Assembly (NCBI GenBank): GCA_963762145.1 | Contig: CAVXJS010000019.1 | Location: 256,001-320,000 of the forward strand | Origin: an uncultured Candidatus Rokubacteria bacterium | GTDB lineage: Bacteria; Methylomirabilota; Methylomirabilia; Rokubacteriales; CSP1-6 | DNA: 64,000 nt | Reading direction: 5' to 3' | Shown: positions 4,079-62,080 of the stretch, piece after piece | Numbering within the stretch: the first letter of the stretch is position 1 | Layout: every line of letters starts with the position of its first letter | Translations under genes and position numbers: made by a program | Notes under the pieces: generated by a model | Databases searched by the model: none | What the model saw: the letters and a program-made list of their open reading frames with translations, nothing else | Told to the model about the DNA's origin: nothing

Positions 4079-5143
4079 CTAGGCGGTCGCCGCCACCGAG
4101 TAGATCGGAACGGCCTCGCGCCGGGTCTTGATCTGGGTGGGCCCGAGGGCCTCGACGTCGAATCCGTTGCCGAGGCCGCTCCGGGTGTTCTCGTCGATGA
4201 GGATGGGCCGGCCGAGCACCTTGGTGTGAGCCTCCAGATGCGCGGCGAGGTTCACCGCGTCTCCCACGCCGGTGTAGGTCATGCGCTGCTGGGTTCCGGT
4301 GAAGCCGGCGATCAGAGGCCCGGAGGCGATGCCGATGCCGATTCGAACCTCGACCGCGCCGCGGCGCGCGCGATCCTGGTTGAAGGCGTCCATCATCTCG
4401 AGCATCTCGAGGGCGGCGCGTACCGCGCGGGTGCGGTGGTCCGTCAGCGGAAGCGGCGCGCCGAAGATCGCCATGAGGCCGTCTCCGAGCATCTGGTTGA
4501 CGATCCCGCCGTGCCCCGCGATCGCGTCGAAGGTGAGGGTGTAGTAGCTGTTGAGGAGCTCGATGGTCTCGGCGGGCGGCAGGGTCTCGGTGAGGCTCGT
4601 GTACGAGCGGATGTCCGAGAACATGACGCTGGCCTCGACCTGCTTGTATCGGCCGTCGAGAGAGCCGCCCGCGGTCAGCACCTCGTCGGCCACCTCGGCG
4701 GTGGCGAACTTCCGGAACAGCTCGCGCTGGAGGTCCCGCAGCCGCTTCTTCTCCAAGCTCGCCGCCACGCGGGCTCGGAGCAGCACCGGATTGACCGGCT
4801 TGAAGAGGTAGTCCTCGGCGCCCATCTCGATGCAGCGCGCGACGCTGTCGACCTCCTCGACCGAGGACATCATGACGACCGGGACGTCCCGCAGGCGCGG
4901 GTCGGCGGCGAGCGCGGCCAGGGTCTGGTAGCCGTCCATCTCGGGCATCTCGATATCGAGCAGGATCAGGTCCGCGCGCCGCTGGCCGAGCGCCTCCAGC
5001 GCCTGGCGCCCGTTCTCGGCGAACGCGACGGTGTGTCCGAGCTGCTCGAGGGCGCGTCCCAGCAGGAGCCGGTTGACCCGGTTGTCGTCGACGACCAGGA
5101 GGCTGCCCGCCGCGGTGCTAGTCGGTGTACTCACGTCGGACAT
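4079..5143 (-). CDS. Receiver domain fused to class III adenylate/guanylate cyclase
   Basis: LVVDD...LLDIEMP receiver; MFSDIRSYT, LGDGLMA, GDAVNLAAHLE cyclase motifs. Confidence 0.9.
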   Translation of the reverse strand: MSDVSTPTSTAAGSLLVVDDNRVNRLLLGRALEQLGHTVAFAENGRQALEALGQRRADLILLDIEMPEMDGYQTLAALAADPRLRDVPVVMMSSVEEVDSVARCIEMGAEDYLFKPVNPVLLRARVAASLEKKRLRDLQRELFRKFATAEVADEVLTAGGSLDGRYKQVEASVMFSDIRSYTSLTETLPPAETIELLNSYYTLTFDAIAGHGGIVNQMLGDGLMAIFGAPLPLTDHRTRAVRAALEMLEMMDAFNQDRARRGAVEVRIGIGIASGPLIAGFTGTQQRMTYTGVGDAVNLAAHLEAHTKVLGRPILIDENTRSGLGNGFDVEALGPTQIKTRREAVPIYSVAATA

Positions 5144-8100
5144 CTCCCAGCGCGTGTGCCACGCGCTCGTTCAAGTTCGCGAGCTGCTCGACCCGGTCGC
5201 CGGCCTCGTGCAGGTCTCCGGCCTGACCCAGGAGCTCGAGCTCGCGGGCGAGCGCGGCGAGCCCGCCGGCGCCCAGGCTCTCGCTGGTGGACTTCAGCGA
5301 GTGGGCGGCCCGGCGGAAGCCGTCCCGGTCCGTCCGCCCGAGGGCGGCGCGGAGTGCGGTCACCAGGTCCCGGGCGTCGGCGATGAAGGTGTCGATCAGC
5401 TCGACGACGAACGCGCGATCCATGGTGCCCCCGAGCCGCTCGATCACCGCACGGTCCACCACGCTCGCGGCCGGCGTGGCCGCCCCGCGCCGCGGGCTGC
5501 GGCCCAGGGCGGCCACCAGCTCCTCGACACGGATCGGCTTCGCGACGTAGTCGTCCATGCCCGCCGCGGTGCACAGCTCGCGGTCGCCCGGCATGGCGTT
5601 GGCGGTCATGGCCACCAGGCGCGGCCGGCGCTCCCCGGGCCAGCGCCGGTTGATCTCGCGGGAGGCCTCGAAGCCGTCGAGCTCCGGCATCTGCACGTCC
5701 ATGAGGACCACGTCGTAGGTCTGCCGGCCGACCGCGTCGATGGCCTCGAGGCCGTTGGCGGCCAGATCGGCCCGGTAACCCATCTGGCCCAGGATGCGAA
5801 GGGCGACCTTCTGGTTGACCACGTTGTCCTCGGCCACGAGGATGCGCAGCGGGTGCCGGCGGGCCATGTCGGGGTCGAGGTCGGTCTGCCCCATCCGCCG
5901 CTGCGGCACGTGGACCGGCTGCTCGGCAAGGACGGAGACGATGGCGTCGAAGAGCTGGGAGGGCTTGATGGGCTTGTTGAGATACGCGGCGAAGCCGGCC
6001 TCCTCCGCGCGCGCCTCGCGGCGGCCCAGCGAGGTGAAGAGGATCAGCGGCAAGGCCGTCCCGGCCGGTTGCTCGCGGATGGCCCGCGCCAGCGCCACGC
6101 CGTCCATCTCCGGCATGTGCATGTCCAGGACGCCGGCGTCGAAGCGCTCGCCGTCCCGGATCCAGCCGAGCGCCTCGGCCGGCGATTCGGTGGCGCGCGC
6201 CCGCATCCCCCAGGTGTCGAGGTGCGAGACGAGGATGCGCCGGTTGGTGGCGTTGTCGTCCACCACCAGGATGCGCTTGTCGTGTAGCGACGGCTGCACG
6301 CCGCTCAGGTCGCGCCGGACGGGGACCGGCGACTCGGCGGCGGGAACTTGGATGGTGAAGCGGAAGTCACTGCCCCCGCCGACCTCGCTGGTGACGCTGA
6401 TCCGACCGCCCATCAGCTCGGTCAGGCGCTGGCTGATCGCCAGCCCGAGCCCGGTGCCGCCGTAGCGGCGGGTGGTGGAGGCGTCGACCTGGCTGAAGGA
6501 CTGGAACAGGCGGCCGAGGCGGTCGGACGGGATGCCGATGCCGGTGTCGCGGACCGAGAAGGTCAGCTCCCACAGGCCGGCGTCGCGATGCGCGGTCACC
6601 GAGAGCACGATCTCGCCGCGCTCGGTGAACTTGACCGCGTTGGAGAGCAGGTTGAGCAGGATCTGGCGCAGGCGCGTGACGTCGCCGACGACCGCGCCGG
6701 GGGTCCCGTCGCCGAAGAGATACGCGAGGTCGAGGTTCTTCTCGGCGGCCCGGCTCGCCACCAGGTCCAGCGCGGACTCGACGCACTCGCGGAGGTCGAA
6801 CGGCTGGGCCTCGAGCTCGAGCCGGCCCGCCTCGATCTTGGAGAAGTCGAGGATGTCGTTGATCACGGTGAGGAGCGCGTCGCCGCTCTGCCGCACGATC
6901 TCCGCGTACTCGCGCTGCTCGTCGGTCAGCGCGGTGTTGAGGAGCAGCCCGCTCATGCCGATCACCGCGTTCATCGGGGTGCGGATCTCGTGGCTCATGG
7001 TGGCCAGGAAGGCGCTCTTGGCCTCGTTGGCCGCCTCCGCCTCCCGCCGGGCCAGGAGGAGCTCGGTGATGTCGTGGTAGATCCCGATCATGCCCATCCG
7101 GGTGCCGTCCACGACCACCGGCATGGACGAGATCTCGACGTCCACGATGCTGCCGTCCTTGCGGGCGCGCCGGCCGATCGCGCGGATCCATTCCCCGTCG
7201 AGGGTCTGGCGGATGTTGGCGCGCACCTCTTCCCGCTTTCCCGGGGCGGCCACCAGGTCCTCCATGCGGCGCCCGAGCGCCTCCGCCGGGGTATGACCGA
7301 AGAGGCGCTCGGCGCCGGGATTCCAGCCCGCCACGGTGCCCTGCAGATCCATCGTGACGATGGCCACCGGGCTGGTCTCGACGAGAGCCTCGGAGTACTG
7401 CTTCTGTCGGTGGATCTCGCGGAACAGCTCCGCGTTGTGGATGGCCAGTCCCGACTGGGTCGCGAAGGTCTGGAGCATGGCCACGACCTCGGGCGAGAAC
7501 GCGCCGCGCTCGCGCCGCAGGATGACGAGGCCGCCCAGCAGGCGGTCTTCCCGCACCAGCGGCACCGCGAGGAGCGAGCGCAGCCCCTGCTGGATGAGGA
7601 GGCGCTGGACCTGGGGGGCGACGAGGCGGGCCGCGGCCTCGACGTCCGCGACCTCCACGGGGGCCCGCTCGACCCCCGCCCGCCCGATTGCGCCCTCGCC
7701 GAGCCGGATCGGCGCGGCGCGCACCGCCTCCAGGAACGCGGACGGGATCTGGTGGGCGACGCGGGCGTGGAAGCTCTGGCTCGATTCGTCGAACTCGTAG
7801 ACGATACCGCCGGCGCTGCCGGAGAGCTCGACCGCGCGGCTGACGATGGTGGCCAGCACGGTCTCGAGGTCCAGCGTGGAGCTGACCGCGCGGCTCACCT
7901 CGCCGAGCGCCTGGAGCTCGCTGACCGAGTGGGTGAGCTGGCCCGTCCGGGCTTCCAGCTCCTTGAAGAGGCGGACGTTCTCGATCGCGATCACCGCCTG
8001 GTCGGCGAAGGTCTGCATCAGGCTGATCTGCCGGTCGCCGAAGCCGCGTGCCTCGGCGCGCCAGCACGCGATGACCCCGACCACGGTGTCGTCCCGCAGC

Positions 8101-10171
8101 ATCGGGACGGCGAGGAACGAGCGGTACCCGCCCGCCCGCTGGGTCGCCGCGCGGAGCGGATTGGCCGGCAGCGAGAGCACGTCGTCCACGTGGATGACCC
8201 GGCGCTCGAGGACCGCCTGGCCGATGGCCACCTCGGGCCCCGGCCGATAGGGGAAGAAGTCCACCCAGGCCTGGAGGATCTGCTCGCGGCCGGGGCCGTG
8301 GACCGACCCCTGGTGGAGCATCTCGCCGTCGAAGCGCAGCAGCGCGCCCGCGAACGCCTCGCACAGGCGGACCGCGCTCTCCACGATGGCGTCGAAAACC
8401 GGCTCCACGTCGGTGGGCGAGCTCGAGATCACGCGGAGGATCTCGCCGGTCGCGGTCTGCTGCTCCAGCGTCTCGGTCAGGTCGCGGTTGCGGCCGTCGA
8501 GCTCGGTGAAGAGGCGCACGTTCTCGATCGCGATGACGGCCTGGTCCGCGAAGGTCTTGAGGAGCTCGATCTGGCGGTCGGAGAAGTGCCCCACCTGCGA
8601 CCGTCCGACTGCGATCGCCCCGATCGGGCGGCCCTCCCGGATCATCGGGACCGCGACGATGCTGCGAAAGGTGACGACGCGCGCGACCGGGCCGAGGGTG
8701 AAGTCGGGATCTGCGTCGATGTCGGGGATGTGGGCGACGATGCCGTCGAGGATCGACCGCCCCGCGGCGCTACCGCGATTCGGCGGAGCGGAGAAGGCGC
8801 GGCGTACGGCCTCCGTCGCTTCGGTGGTGTGACCATGGCCGGCCACGAAGTGGAGCAGCTCGCCGTCGAACCGAAAGACCTGGCAGACGGTCCCCTCGCA
8901 CAGGCGGGCCGCGCTCTGAGCGATCGTGTCGAACACGGGCTGAGCGTCGGTGGGCGAGCTGGAGATGACCCGCAGGATCTCGCCGGTGGCGGTCTGCTGC
9001 TCGAGGGTCTCGGTCAGCTCGCGGTTGCGGGCCTGGACCTCGGTGAACAGGCGCACGTTCTGGATCGCGATGACCGCCTGCGCCGCGAAGGTCTTGAGCA
9101 GCTCGATCTGGGTCTCGGTGAAAGGACGCGGGGTGGTCCATCGGTGGACGACGATGGCCCCGACCGGAGCGCCCTCGTGGAGGATCGGAACACACAGGAC
9201 ACTCCGGAGTCCGACCCGGCGCAGCGAGTCGAGATCGAAGGTGGGGTCGTCGAGCACATCGGGGACGTGGGCGGCATTGCCGGTCAGGATCGCGCGGCCG
9301 GCCACACTGCCCAGCGTCGCCTCCATCGGGTAGATCTGGCGAAGGACCGCGCCGCCTTCCGAGCTCGTGTTGTCCAGGGACCGGAGGTTGATCAGCCGGC
9401 CGTCGTAGGTGAACACCGCGCCGGAGTCGGCGTTGCACAGACGCCGCGCGTTGCCGGCGATCGTGTCGAAGACGGGCTGGACGTCGGTGGGCGAGCTCGA
9501 GATGACGCCCAGGATCTCGCCGGTCGCGGTCCGCTGCTCGAGAGTCTCGGTCAGCTCGCGGTTGCGGGACTCGAGCTCGGTGAAGAGGCGGACGTTCTCG
9601 ATCGCGATGACCGCCTGGTCGGCGAAGGTCTGCACGAGCGCGATCTGGGCTGCGGTGAAGGGGCGGACCTGGCGACGGCCACAGCCGATCACGCCGATCG
9701 GCACCCGGTTGCGGAGGATCGGGATGGCCAGGAACGTCCGGTAGGGCGCCGCACGCTGGAGCACCTGCAGGGTGTGCGGATCGTAGGCGGGATCCTCCAG
9801 CACGTCCTCGCAATGGACCGCCCGGCCCTCCACGAACGCGCGGCCCATGATGAACCCGCGGTGCGCCGGTCGGGGAAGAGGCTCTGGTAGGCTCGGGTCT
9901 CCGCGGGGGACATGTTGTTGATCGCGGTCAGGTGAAGCAGGCCGTCATCATCGAGCCGCGCCACCGCGCTGAATCCGGCCTCGCACAGCCGCGCCGCGCT
10001 GGTCACGATCGCGTCGAACACGGGCTGGACGTCGTCCGGCGAGCTGGAGATGACCCGCAGGATCTCGGCGGTCGCCGCCTGCTGCTCGAGCGCCTCGGCC
10101 AGGCGCCCGGCCGAGCCGCCGGTCGAGGGGGCTCGACGGGTGGAGGAGGCACCGCGCCGGGCGGGCTTCAC
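5118..10171 (-). CDS. Hybrid sensor kinase 5xGAF-PAS-HisKA-HATPase-REC-REC-HPt, with one frameshift near 9872-9875
   Basis: [33 protein letters not shown], two receivers, AHSLKS HPt; ORFs 9689-10171 and 5118-9848 join if the G4 run at 9872-9875 is G5. The start may be the in-frame ATC at 10213 behind SD GGAGAG. Confidence 0.88.
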
Positions 10172-10319: not shown

Positions 10320-10832
10320 TCAGGCCTCCGCGCCGGTCTGGGTGTGGCTCCGGAAGGTCACGGTCTCGTCCCCGATCCGCACCCGGGCGTCCCAGGTGAT
10401 GTCGATGGCCCCCTGCACGCTCTGGTGGGCCGGGCAGCCTTGCGGGTGCAGCGCCAGCGCCCGCTCGGTCGCGTCCCGGCTCTCGGCGGGCACCGCGAGC
10501 TCGTAATGGACGTGGATGGACCTGATGCGGATGGTCTTGCCGACCCCGACGATGCGGCCTTCCACGGTGGCGACATAGCCGTCACGGTCGAACGCGATCT
10601 TGCGCCCTGCCAGGGCGCCGCGCAGCGTGCCGTACATTCAGCCGGCGACGGCCGCGACGATGTGGTCGAGGGTGGAGGCGACCGGCGGCCCTTCCGCGAC
10701 GCCGTAGTACTCGCGGAGCTTGCCCTGCACGCCGTAGACCACCGGAGCGGGGACCTCGCCCAGGTAGGCGTGGCGGTAGCCGTGCCGGTTCTCGAGACGG
10801 GCCTGAGAGATGTATTCGAAGTCGTCGGGCAT
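10320..10832 (-). CDS. OsmC/Ohr-family protein, probable selenoprotein (in-frame TGA at 10638-10640 read as Sec)
   Basis: Two in-frame ORFs abut at one TGA: DHIVAAVAG-[TGA]-MYGTL, the site of the first OsmC Cys; second Cys in GCPAHQSV; hairpin downstream. Confidence 0.8.
10593..10622 (-). promoter_or_regulatory. Candidate bacterial SECIS element
   Basis: mRNA after UGA: CGCG-GCGCCCU-GGC-AGGGCGC-AAGAU-CGCG; 7-bp upper stem with a G-starting loop 27 nt after UGA. Confidence 0.65.
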
Positions 10833-10947
10833 GAAAGCCTCCTCGGGTTGTTTGGACGTGGCCGGGGGCGGCCGCGGTCAAACTCTAGCATCCGGCCGCC
10901 TTGAGCTGCGCGCGGAACGTGGTTAGCATGCGTCGCGGAGGGGCGCG

Positions 10948-30930: not shown

Positions 30931-31005
30931 GCGGGCGTGGCGCAATGGTAGCGCACGAGCTTCCCAAGCTCGGGGTTGCGAGTTCAAATCTCGTCGCCCG
31001 CTCCA
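30931..31005 (+). tRNA. tRNA-Gly (anticodon CCC)
   Basis: Acceptor stem GCGGGCG/CGCCCGC, anticodon arm GAGC-TTCCCAA-GCTC, T-loop TTCAAAT, encoded CCA; TTGACT and TAGAAT promoter boxes upstream. Confidence 0.95.
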
Positions 31006-60387: not shown

Positions 60388-62080
60388 GTGTGGAGATCGC
60401 TGCTCCTCGCGCTCGCGCTGCTGCCGGGGCTCGCCGCCCCGGCAGTGGCGCAGAGCGCGGGGCCCTCTCCCGAGATCGCCAGACACATCGCGGACGTGGC
60501 CTCGGCCGACTCGGCGGTCCAGGAGGCCGCCGCCGTCGCGCTGGGCAAGACGGGTGACCGCAAGATCCTGCCGCTGCTGGAGGCGCTGCGTGAGGGCAGC
60601 GTCTACGTGCGCTCCCTGCCCGGGGGCAAGAAGGAAACCGTCATCGTCGGCGACAAGGTCAGCGAGGGCGACAAGACCCTGGTCCCCCTCTTCGCCGCCT
60701 ACGGCCGCGAGCCGATCGCCGGCGCCGACGGCAAGCCCCTGCTGGCCGACCTGTCCACCCTCGGGGAGGTCGTCGACCGGGCGCAGCCTGCGCATCGCGA
60801 TCCGCCCGCTGATCGACGCGTTCTCGGGCCAGAACGACCTCGCCAACCCGGATCCGGCCGCCCGCCGCGCCGCCGCCACCAAGATGGCCTACACCGGCGA
60901 CGCGGCGACGCTGCAAGCTGCTCGAGGACGCCCTGCCCAAGGAGACCGATCGCTGGGTGCGCTTCGCGCTCGAGGAGGGCGCGGCCCTGATTCGGCCTGC
61001 GCACTCGGGGACCCGGCCGAGCGGGTGATCGCGGCCGAGACCCTCGGCGCGGCTGCGCAGCGCCAACGCGATCGGAGCCGCTCTACCAGATCGCGGGGGA
61101 TCCCCAGGCGCCCGCCCCGCTCGCGGCCGCGGCGCAGGTCGCGGTGAAGCGCATCGAGCGCTGGGGACTCTTCACCCAGGCCATCGAGATCGCCTTCCAG
61201 GGCCTGTCGCTCTCCTCGATCCTGCTGCTGATGGCCCTGGGCCTCGCGATCGTGTTCGGGCTCATGGGCGTCATCAACATGGCCCACGGCGAGCTGATGG
61301 CGCTCGGCGCCTACGCCACGTTCCTGATGCAGGGCTGGTTCGCGACGTACTTCCCGGGGGGCTTCGACTACTACTTCCTGGTCGCGCTGCCGTTCTCGTT
61401 CCTGGTGTCGGCAAGCGCGCGGGCTTCCTGCTCGAGCGCGGGGTGATCCGGTTTCTCTACGGACGGCCGCTCGAGACGCTGCTGCTGACCTGGGGCGTGA
61501 GCCTCATGATCCAGCAGGGCCTCCGCCTCTGGTTCGGCGCGGCCAACGTGGACGTGAGCTCGCCCCGCTGGCTGTCGGGCGGGATCCCGGTCATGATCGG
61601 CGTGCAGCTCCCCTACAACCGGCTCTTCATCATCGGCGCTCGCCGCGATCTGCGTCGGGGCGATGTACCTCCTGCTCTTCCGCACCGACGCGGGCCTGCG
61701 CATCCGCGCGGTGACCCAGAACCGCGGGATGGCCGCCTGCCTGGGCGTCCGGGCGCGGTGGGTGGATGCGGGCACATTCGCGCTCGGGCGCCGGGCTGGC
61801 CGGGCTGGCCGGCTGCGCCATCACCCAGATCGGCAACGTGGGCCCGGAGCTCGGCCAGAACTACATCGTGGACTCGTTCATGGTCGTGGTCACCGGCGGC
61901 GTCGGCAAGCTGGCCGGGAGCATCCTCGCCGCGATCGGCATCGGCGGGCTCAACAAGGTGATCGAACCAGGAATGGGCGCGGTGTTCGGGAAGGTGCTGA
62001 TCCTGGTCCTCGTGATCCTGTTCATCCAGCGGCGGCCGTCGGGGCTCTTCGCGACCAAGGGACGCTATGCGGAGTCTTGA
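60388..62080 (+). CDS. urtB: Urea ABC transporter permease with HEAT-like periplasmic N-terminus, several indels
   Basis: [52 protein letters not shown]. Confidence 0.88.

Follow-up and report, generated by a model that had tools for sequence, protein, structure and literature searches.

An OsmC/Ohr-fold gene with a conserved in-frame TGA from Candidatus Rokubacteria: a predicted selenoprotein outside the catalogued OsmC-like family

Introduction

Two short open reading frames that share a frame and are separated by nothing but a TGA raise a simple question: does the triplet end one gene and precede a second, or does it specify selenocysteine (Sec) within a single protein? Such a pair is present in a 64,000-nucleotide stretch of DNA (the window; 70% GC) from an uncultured Candidatus Rokubacteria bacterium, where translation with table 11 splits a gene into a 64-aa ORF (10638-10832) and a 105-aa ORF (10320-10637) with one TGA (10640-10638) between them. 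An earlier inspection of the sequence (the original prediction) had taken the pair for a hidden selenoprotein of the OsmC family with a SECIS-like hairpin. Proteins of the Ohr/OsmC type reduce hydroperoxides in a lipoyl-dependent manner by means of a two-cysteine pair (PMC8945050). OsmC-like selenoproteins with the motif UxxT were found in Sargasso Sea data (PMC1088965), a table of 119 selenoprotein families holds one OsmC row, again UxxT (PMC13188914), and OsmC does not occur in the main text on BSepDB (PMC13326102). We found no description in the literature of the OsmC branch reported here; the supplements and lists of selenoprotein catalogues may already include members.

Results and Discussion

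The OsmC domain extends across the TGA

The gene is located on the minus strand, a detail absent from the original prediction, which had given the lengths of both ORFs and the position of the TGA correctly. Translation through this triplet gives the anticipated 170 residues, with HIVAAVAG-U-MYGTL and, further downstream, GCPAH containing Cys133 (Table 1). The Pfam model for OsmC (PF02566, gathering score 27.5) matches residues 56-147 with 41.5 bits and spans the TGA; when the halves were searched separately, the 3' ORF alone scored 29.4 bits and the 5' ORF gave no match. In an AlphaFold model that was calculated from a 51-row alignment with Cys in place of Sec (mean pLDDT 95.6), residue 65 is situated within helix 54-76. 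The OsmC domain and this helix both run across the TGA, and the two halves are regarded as one protein. The top structural matches (Foldseek, VIA-align) are all Ohr/OsmC-like, the best of them being 2onf_A (Z 14.8, rmsd 2.0, 137 aligned residues), and in Ohr and OsmC chains of the PDB the two catalytic cysteines fall opposite residues 65 and 133. Pfam, fold and residue alignment therefore agree in supporting what had been proposed, i.e., a member of the OsmC family with predicted Sec at the first catalytic cysteine.

Cys133 is invariant and encoded by TGC in 44 and by TGT in 35 of the 79 rows compared, and Arg40 is conserved in addition to the invariant Arg20. In the register provided by an alignment with YhfA, Leu55 stands at the position of the Ohr/OsmC glutamate with Asp56 beside it. 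The sequence T-L-D-H of the window protein occupies the place of the catalytic-Glu motif of Ohr and OsmC.

Table 1. Positions of the gene and its predicted functional elements within the window
Feature	Position	Strand	Evidence or remark
OsmC/Ohr-fold gene, 170 codons, internal TGA	10320..10832	-	Pfam match across TGA and AlphaFold model; ATG at 10832, terminal stop TGA at 10322-10320
Shine-Dalgarno-like GAGGAGG	10838..10844	-	5 bases ahead of the ATG at 10832
In-frame TGA, codon 65, predicted Sec at peroxidatic-cysteine position	10638..10640	-	TGA in 80/80 loci; Cys in 30/42 homologs
Predicted SECIS, 7-bp stem, 3-nt loop GGC (10611-10609)	10602..10618	-	Pairing in 560/560 cells; frozen silent sites
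Gly68 codon GGC, another frozen silent site, located ahead of the hairpin and after the UGA	10629..10631	-	79/79 rows
Cys133 (GCPAH), predicted resolving cysteine	10434..10436	-	Cys in 79/79 rows; aligns with second Cys of Ohr/OsmC
Arg20, invariant, candidate active-site arginine	10773..10775	-	79/79 rows

Codon 65 in related genes and proteins

A protein search yielded 2116 matches of 93-298 aa. Among the best 120 of these, 116 start at Met66, and the position of the TGA is taken by Cys in one case, by Trp in two and by a deletion in one. A representative library was searched with no length limit, and the best 150 of its 409 matches comprise 24 proteins that end at residue 64, 43 that start at residue 66, 42 that span the column and 41 other fragments. 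Gene callers thus split this gene in the manner that had been foreseen. Among the 42 spanning representatives within these 150, 30 have Cys at codon 65, five have a gap and seven a single other residue; a Trp is found in one of the 150.

A scan of GTDB genomes confirmed 141 loci. Our comparisons use the best 80 of these 141 (labelled L001 etc.) and consequently lean towards close kin, mostly titled Rokubacteria/Methylomirabilota, Ktedonobacteria or other Chloroflexota. The codon-65 column reads TGA in every one of these 80 loci and never TAA, TAG or TGG, while the terminal stops of the same genes vary (TAG 43, TGA 19, TAA 18). Identity to the window protein is similar on either side of the TGA (80% and 76%), and in one gene, that of L005, the frame is closed early, 44 codons downstream. 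Homologs accordingly show mostly TGA or Cys at this position, as the original prediction implied, and the comparison shows, at the level of sequence, a UGA that is kept under selection where relatives carry Cys.

Two genomes each contain two copies of the TGA gene (L051 and L057, approximately 20 kb apart on AP024096.1, a complete genome from the Ktedonobacteria, and L010 and L011). Six contigs (L001, L005, L006, L009, L024 and L032) bear the titles Deferrimicrobiaceae, Acidoferrum, Nitrosotalea, Verrucomicrobiia, Actinomycetota or Acidobacteria. Their copies show 76-91% identity to that of the window, and in some cases the neighbouring genes are the same as well; the titles may reflect binning or labelling and not transfer.

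A predicted SECIS element downstream of the UGA

The hairpin GCGCCCU-GGC-AGGGCGC (10618-10602) is separated from the UGA by 26 bases, such that its loop starts at the 27th base, exactly where it had been placed originally. We approximated the bSECIS model with a script of our own, not with bSECISearch, using published criteria (loop of 3-9 nt, stem of 4-16 bp, an early loop G, spacing of 16-37 nt and an energy of at most -7.5; PMC13188914), and the hairpin lies within all of them (loop GGC, 7 bp, 26 nt, -12.0 kcal/mol). Of all 1372 TGA triplets that the window contains, 191 are followed by a hit of the same approximation, a number that falls to 89 when the G[G/U] loop rule is imposed (6.5-14%), and the stability of the hairpin is not unusual, with z values against shuffles of +0.29 to -0.27 in four folds of this one sequence. 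Folding energy was therefore rejected as proof of a SECIS element. Covariation was likewise dropped, because compensatory double changes in the stem are absent from the 80 distinct rows and the shuffle control proved uninformative (500/500); in its place we turned to the conservation of silent sites.

All 560 stem cells of the 80 distinct rows are paired, and each of its 21 changes is one-sided and leads to G-U. The loops of the 80 loci (GGC 55, GUC 23, GGU 2) all match G[G/U]N, a pattern that forms part of the bSECIS model (PMC13188914). Silent changes were counted by parsimony on a 78-row DNA tree from which L005, L074 and L079 were left out. The third positions of codons 73-77 have undergone 1, 0, 0, 0 and 1 such changes, compared with 21.1 on average (sd 4.8, minimum 7) for the 65 remaining four-fold sites. 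The hairpin contains the alanine codon GCA, which accounts for only 2.1% of the codons for this residue across 12 window genes; under the codon use of the window, coding for the peptide would by itself produce the stem with a probability of 0.011. A single sequence is insufficient to place the hairpin beyond chance; this follows from the agreement of the TGA column and the frozen silent sites across relatives. By comparison, it is shown to behave as a constrained, putative SECIS-type element, and the location of such an element immediately 3' of the UGA, part of the original prediction, is borne out by the unbroken pairing, the fitting loop pattern and the frozen silent sites.

Outside the hairpin, the Gly68 codon is GGC in all 79 rows with no change on the tree. 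A search for a pairing partner of this codon returned no single dominating candidate. A second helix that encloses the UGA was suggested by RNAalifold; it is not claimed here, since 11 of 81 rows cannot form one of its pairs and other structures prevail over it in ensembles.

Relationship to known OsmC-like families

The catalogued selenoprotein family of this fold, NF041052 (OsmC_like_Se), has several properties in common with the window protein, namely membership in PF02566, Sec at the first cysteine position after the AAxAx helix turn, a downstream resolving cysteine, and a UGA with a SECIS. The window protein, however, reaches only 17.2 bits with the NF041052 model and two relatives reach 21.2 and 24.8 (range 17-25), far below the cut-off of 95, and it contains G-U-M-Y-G-T instead of UxxT. 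The best E value for NF041052 among the 51 members of the alignment is 9.8e-07. A second OsmC gene in L038 with the motif U-L-M-T served as a positive control and scored 162.3 bits. It lies side by side with the OsmC-fold TGA gene of that locus in convergent orientation, and the two products align over 65 residues with 26% identity. The proposed tie to the reported OsmC-like selenoproteins thus holds for the Pfam family and the position of Sec and fails for the NF041052 model and the UxxT motif. As both the cut-off and the motif are failed, we assign the window protein to a separate branch; judged from sequence, the family behaves as an OsmC-type selenoprotein and yet stands outside NF041052.

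Ohr (TIGR03561) and OsmC (TIGR03562) share the fold (Z approximately 11-13) and both catalytic positions with the window protein at 11-19% identity. They use a peroxidatic cysteine where Sec is predicted for the window gene; the score with TIGR03562 is 14.4 (cut-off 85.8) and TIGR03561 gives no match. Structurally closest are YhfA-type and uncharacterized OsmC-like proteins, i.e., 2onf (Thermoplasma Ta0195) and 1ml8 (Z 12.8, rmsd 2.2), in which the P-M-E of YhfA aligns with T-L-D of the window protein. Both use Cys and are 11-16% identical to the window protein, whose family keeps the invariant Arg20. According to PMC8945050, YhfA-type proteins are without demonstrated activity. The nearest relatives in sequence (33-76% identity) are unnamed OsmC-like proteins of the representative library with the pattern 'TLD..C..GT..GAL..R', which have Cys and not TGA in 30 rows.

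In a quick tree, the 30 Sec rows group among the Cys relatives with an SH-aLRT value of 89 and enclose two Cys rows, which suggests that the latter are putative reversions. The Sec group does not take in several of the fragments that begin with Met66, and the NF041052 row sits on a very long branch. Although this quick tree does not demonstrate an independent origin of Sec relative to NF041052, Sec was likely gained independently of that family.

Gene neighbourhood

In the window, a SnoaL-like and a TIGR04282/DUF2064 gene are oriented divergently from the OsmC-fold gene, which lies upstream of a hybrid kinase. Near the start of this 1576-aa GAF/PAS hybrid histidine kinase (minus strand), a frameshift at about 9850-9870 places the N-terminal GAF part in another frame, which may be either an assembly error or real. 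An ABC permease-like gene (about 61144-62080) seems to be broken across several frames and represents another possible indel.

No neighbour within 6 kb is universal to the 81 regions compared (window included). Neighbour counts over these regions come from a crude caller and are lower bounds, as it recovered the 3' half of the OsmC gene in only 67 of the 81. The TIGR04282/DUF2064 gene recurs in at least 14 regions and clusters of DUF692, DUF2063, DUF2282 and DoxX genes in at least about 13-14. Such genes, with DUF692 belonging to the MbnB/TglH/ChrH type, stand beside the gene in L003, L004, L010, L023, L026, L030, L031, L036, L038, L040, L043 and L056. The gene for a peroxiredoxin-like UxxC selenoprotein adjoins the OsmC-fold gene on the same strand in 17 of the 80 loci, with gaps of -17 to +28 bases in 15 of them, of +71 in one and of -195 in one, the last probably due to a frameshift. 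The window itself has no such neighbour.

Selenocysteine machinery

E. coli SelA, SelB and SelD found no match in the 64-kb window (tblastn), and a tRNA-Sec is absent from it; Rfam reports a tRNA-Gly(CCC) at 30931-31005 (+) as the only RNA gene in the window. The same three proteins gave one match across the 80 loci (1.07 Mb), a SelA in L046. In this locus, titled as a Rokubacteria MAG, the beginning of selA and a tRNA-Sec that scores 69.7 bits are located 8.5-10 kb from the gene. Sec machinery is thus found in 1 of the 80 flanking regions and in none of those from Ktedonobacteria. For the selA/B/C/D set that the original prediction expects in this organism, the sequence covered offers evidence from this one relative only. 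Methylomirabilota are reported users of Sec, and 63 selenoproteins are predicted for one of their MAGs (PMC13188914).

Interpretation and alternative readings

We conclude that the window gene very probably encodes a single OsmC/Ohr-fold selenoprotein of 170 residues. By analogy with the known bacterial pathway, SelB would in all likelihood bind the hairpin loop and deliver Sec-tRNA to the UGA. That the TGA instead separates two translationally coupled small genes, or marks a pseudogene, is exceedingly improbable. An ATG does follow the TGA directly and databases store the halves separately, but a Shine-Dalgarno-like motif precedes Met66 in 1 of 79 related loci as opposed to 75 of 79 for Met1 (L074 left out), Met follows the Cys in unsplit homologs as well, a genuine stop codon should vary between TAA, TAG and TGA in the way seen at the end of the gene, and the break would fall in the middle of a helix and remove the catalytic residue. 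Hardly more credible is a genome-wide reading of UGA as Trp (code 4) or an error in sequencing or assembly. The Trp residues at the column in 2 of the 120 listed homologs and 1 of the 150 listed representatives, which probably stem from gene callers using code 4, and the frameshift in the neighbouring kinase speak for it. Code 4 is excluded because TGG never occurs at the column in the 80 loci and because TGA ends window genes: it terminates five of the seven others checked, which have complete or almost complete Pfam domains, contain no TGA within the frame and encode Trp by TGG. An assembly error is excluded by the TGA in 80 of 80 loci, as it cannot recur in 80 independent assemblies. It is also very unlikely that the UGA is recoded as Cys through the SECIS by tRNA-ReC (SelC*), or that the gene is silent for want of Sec machinery. 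SECIS-dependent recoding of UGA by tRNA-ReC, present in 13-17% of some genome sets, has been reported (PMC13582414), and the window lacks Sec machinery; on the other hand, the sole recoding tRNA in the 80 flanks is the canonical tRNA-Sec beside selA in L046, Methylomirabilota are Sec users (PMC13188914), and hairpin and reading frame are intact in the window.

For the selenoprotein itself, the chemistry of Ohr and OsmC points to a peroxide reductase operating with Sec65 and Cys133, an activity we consider rather probable. The selenolate of Sec65 would attack the hydroperoxide and the oxidized selenium would then condense with Cys133, after which a dithiol donor would reset the enzyme. A lipoylated protein, the donor of Ohr/OsmC, could fill this role, or else the UxxC thioredoxin-fold selenoprotein encoded next to the gene in many relatives; gene order prompts the guess that the co-encoded UxxC protein acts as reductant, a proposal that we regard with considerable doubt. 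A YhfA-like redox protein devoid of peroxidase activity, which might for instance exchange thiols and disulfides or handle sulfur, metal or arsenic, is also compatible with Sec and represents a possible, if less probable, alternative. The glutamate of Ohr/OsmC is missing in the register used, the scores lie far below TIGR03561 and TIGR03562, the top structural matches 2onf and 1ml8 are uncharacterized, and TIGR04282/DUF2064 and DUF692/DUF2063/DUF2282/DoxX genes recur nearby. Against it stand the retention of both catalytic positions and of Arg20, the peroxiredoxin-like nature of the tightest neighbour and the lack of any universal one. A further-reaching extension of the peroxide reductase proposal seems unlikely to us: an undescribed OsmC-fold family, widespread in soil Rokubacteria and Ktedonobacteria, would have gained Sec independently and would be recycled by the UxxC partner in a selenium-to-selenium peroxide relay and not by a lipoylated enzyme, with an RNA determinant at codon 68 aiding recoding.

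Known recoding rules remain unchanged by these data, and no new mechanism is invoked. The locus represents a second, sequence-distinct branch of OsmC selenoproteins, whereas the catalogues checked list one OsmC-like family (UxxT), and its extent is given by the 141 GTDB loci and the 2116 protein matches described above. NCBI-named records are 100-105 aa 'OsmC family protein' entries without the catalytic residue; because of this omission, current annotation hides the chemistry. The branch adds evidence that abundant soil lineages spend selenium on redox defence, offers a compact and strongly constrained predicted SECIS with a three-base loop, and provides a natural Sec/Cys pair for probing the role of selenium in the Ohr fold.

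Other UGA-containing genes

A second convincing Sec gene was not found in the window, where six TGAs passed a coding filter and five of these looked antisense by eye. A screen of the 80 loci for further genes with TGA plus hairpin gave 54 candidates. In 25 loci, none of them titled Ktedonobacteria, another TGA gene is of a classic redox type according to motifs read by eye; peroxiredoxin-like UxxC proteins occur in 19 of the 25, in addition to TlpA-, thioredoxin-, AhpD- and PrdB-like ones, and example family matches for these genes lie mostly below curated cut-offs.

Three predicted selenoprotein genes are packed into 1.7 kb of L038 (10001-11695), namely the OsmC-fold TGA gene, the NF041052 member that faces this gene and one of the peroxiredoxin-like UxxC type. 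Three Rokubacteria loci (L023:5213-5581 +, L035:2273-2644 +, L043 about 4919-5311 +) encode a small membrane protein of roughly 124 aa in which an in-frame TGA follows G-S or G-T and is accompanied by a hairpin with a G in the loop. No NCBIfam selenoprotein model matched it in the two of these loci that were scanned, and it is possibly an uncatalogued selenoprotein. Finally, a Gemmatimonadales contig (L079; 1559-4553 - and 13002-14051 +) contains AhpD-like, PrdB-like and unclassified U-G-T-C genes, each with an in-frame TGA, as well as a TPR-like ORF carrying C-P-I-TGA.
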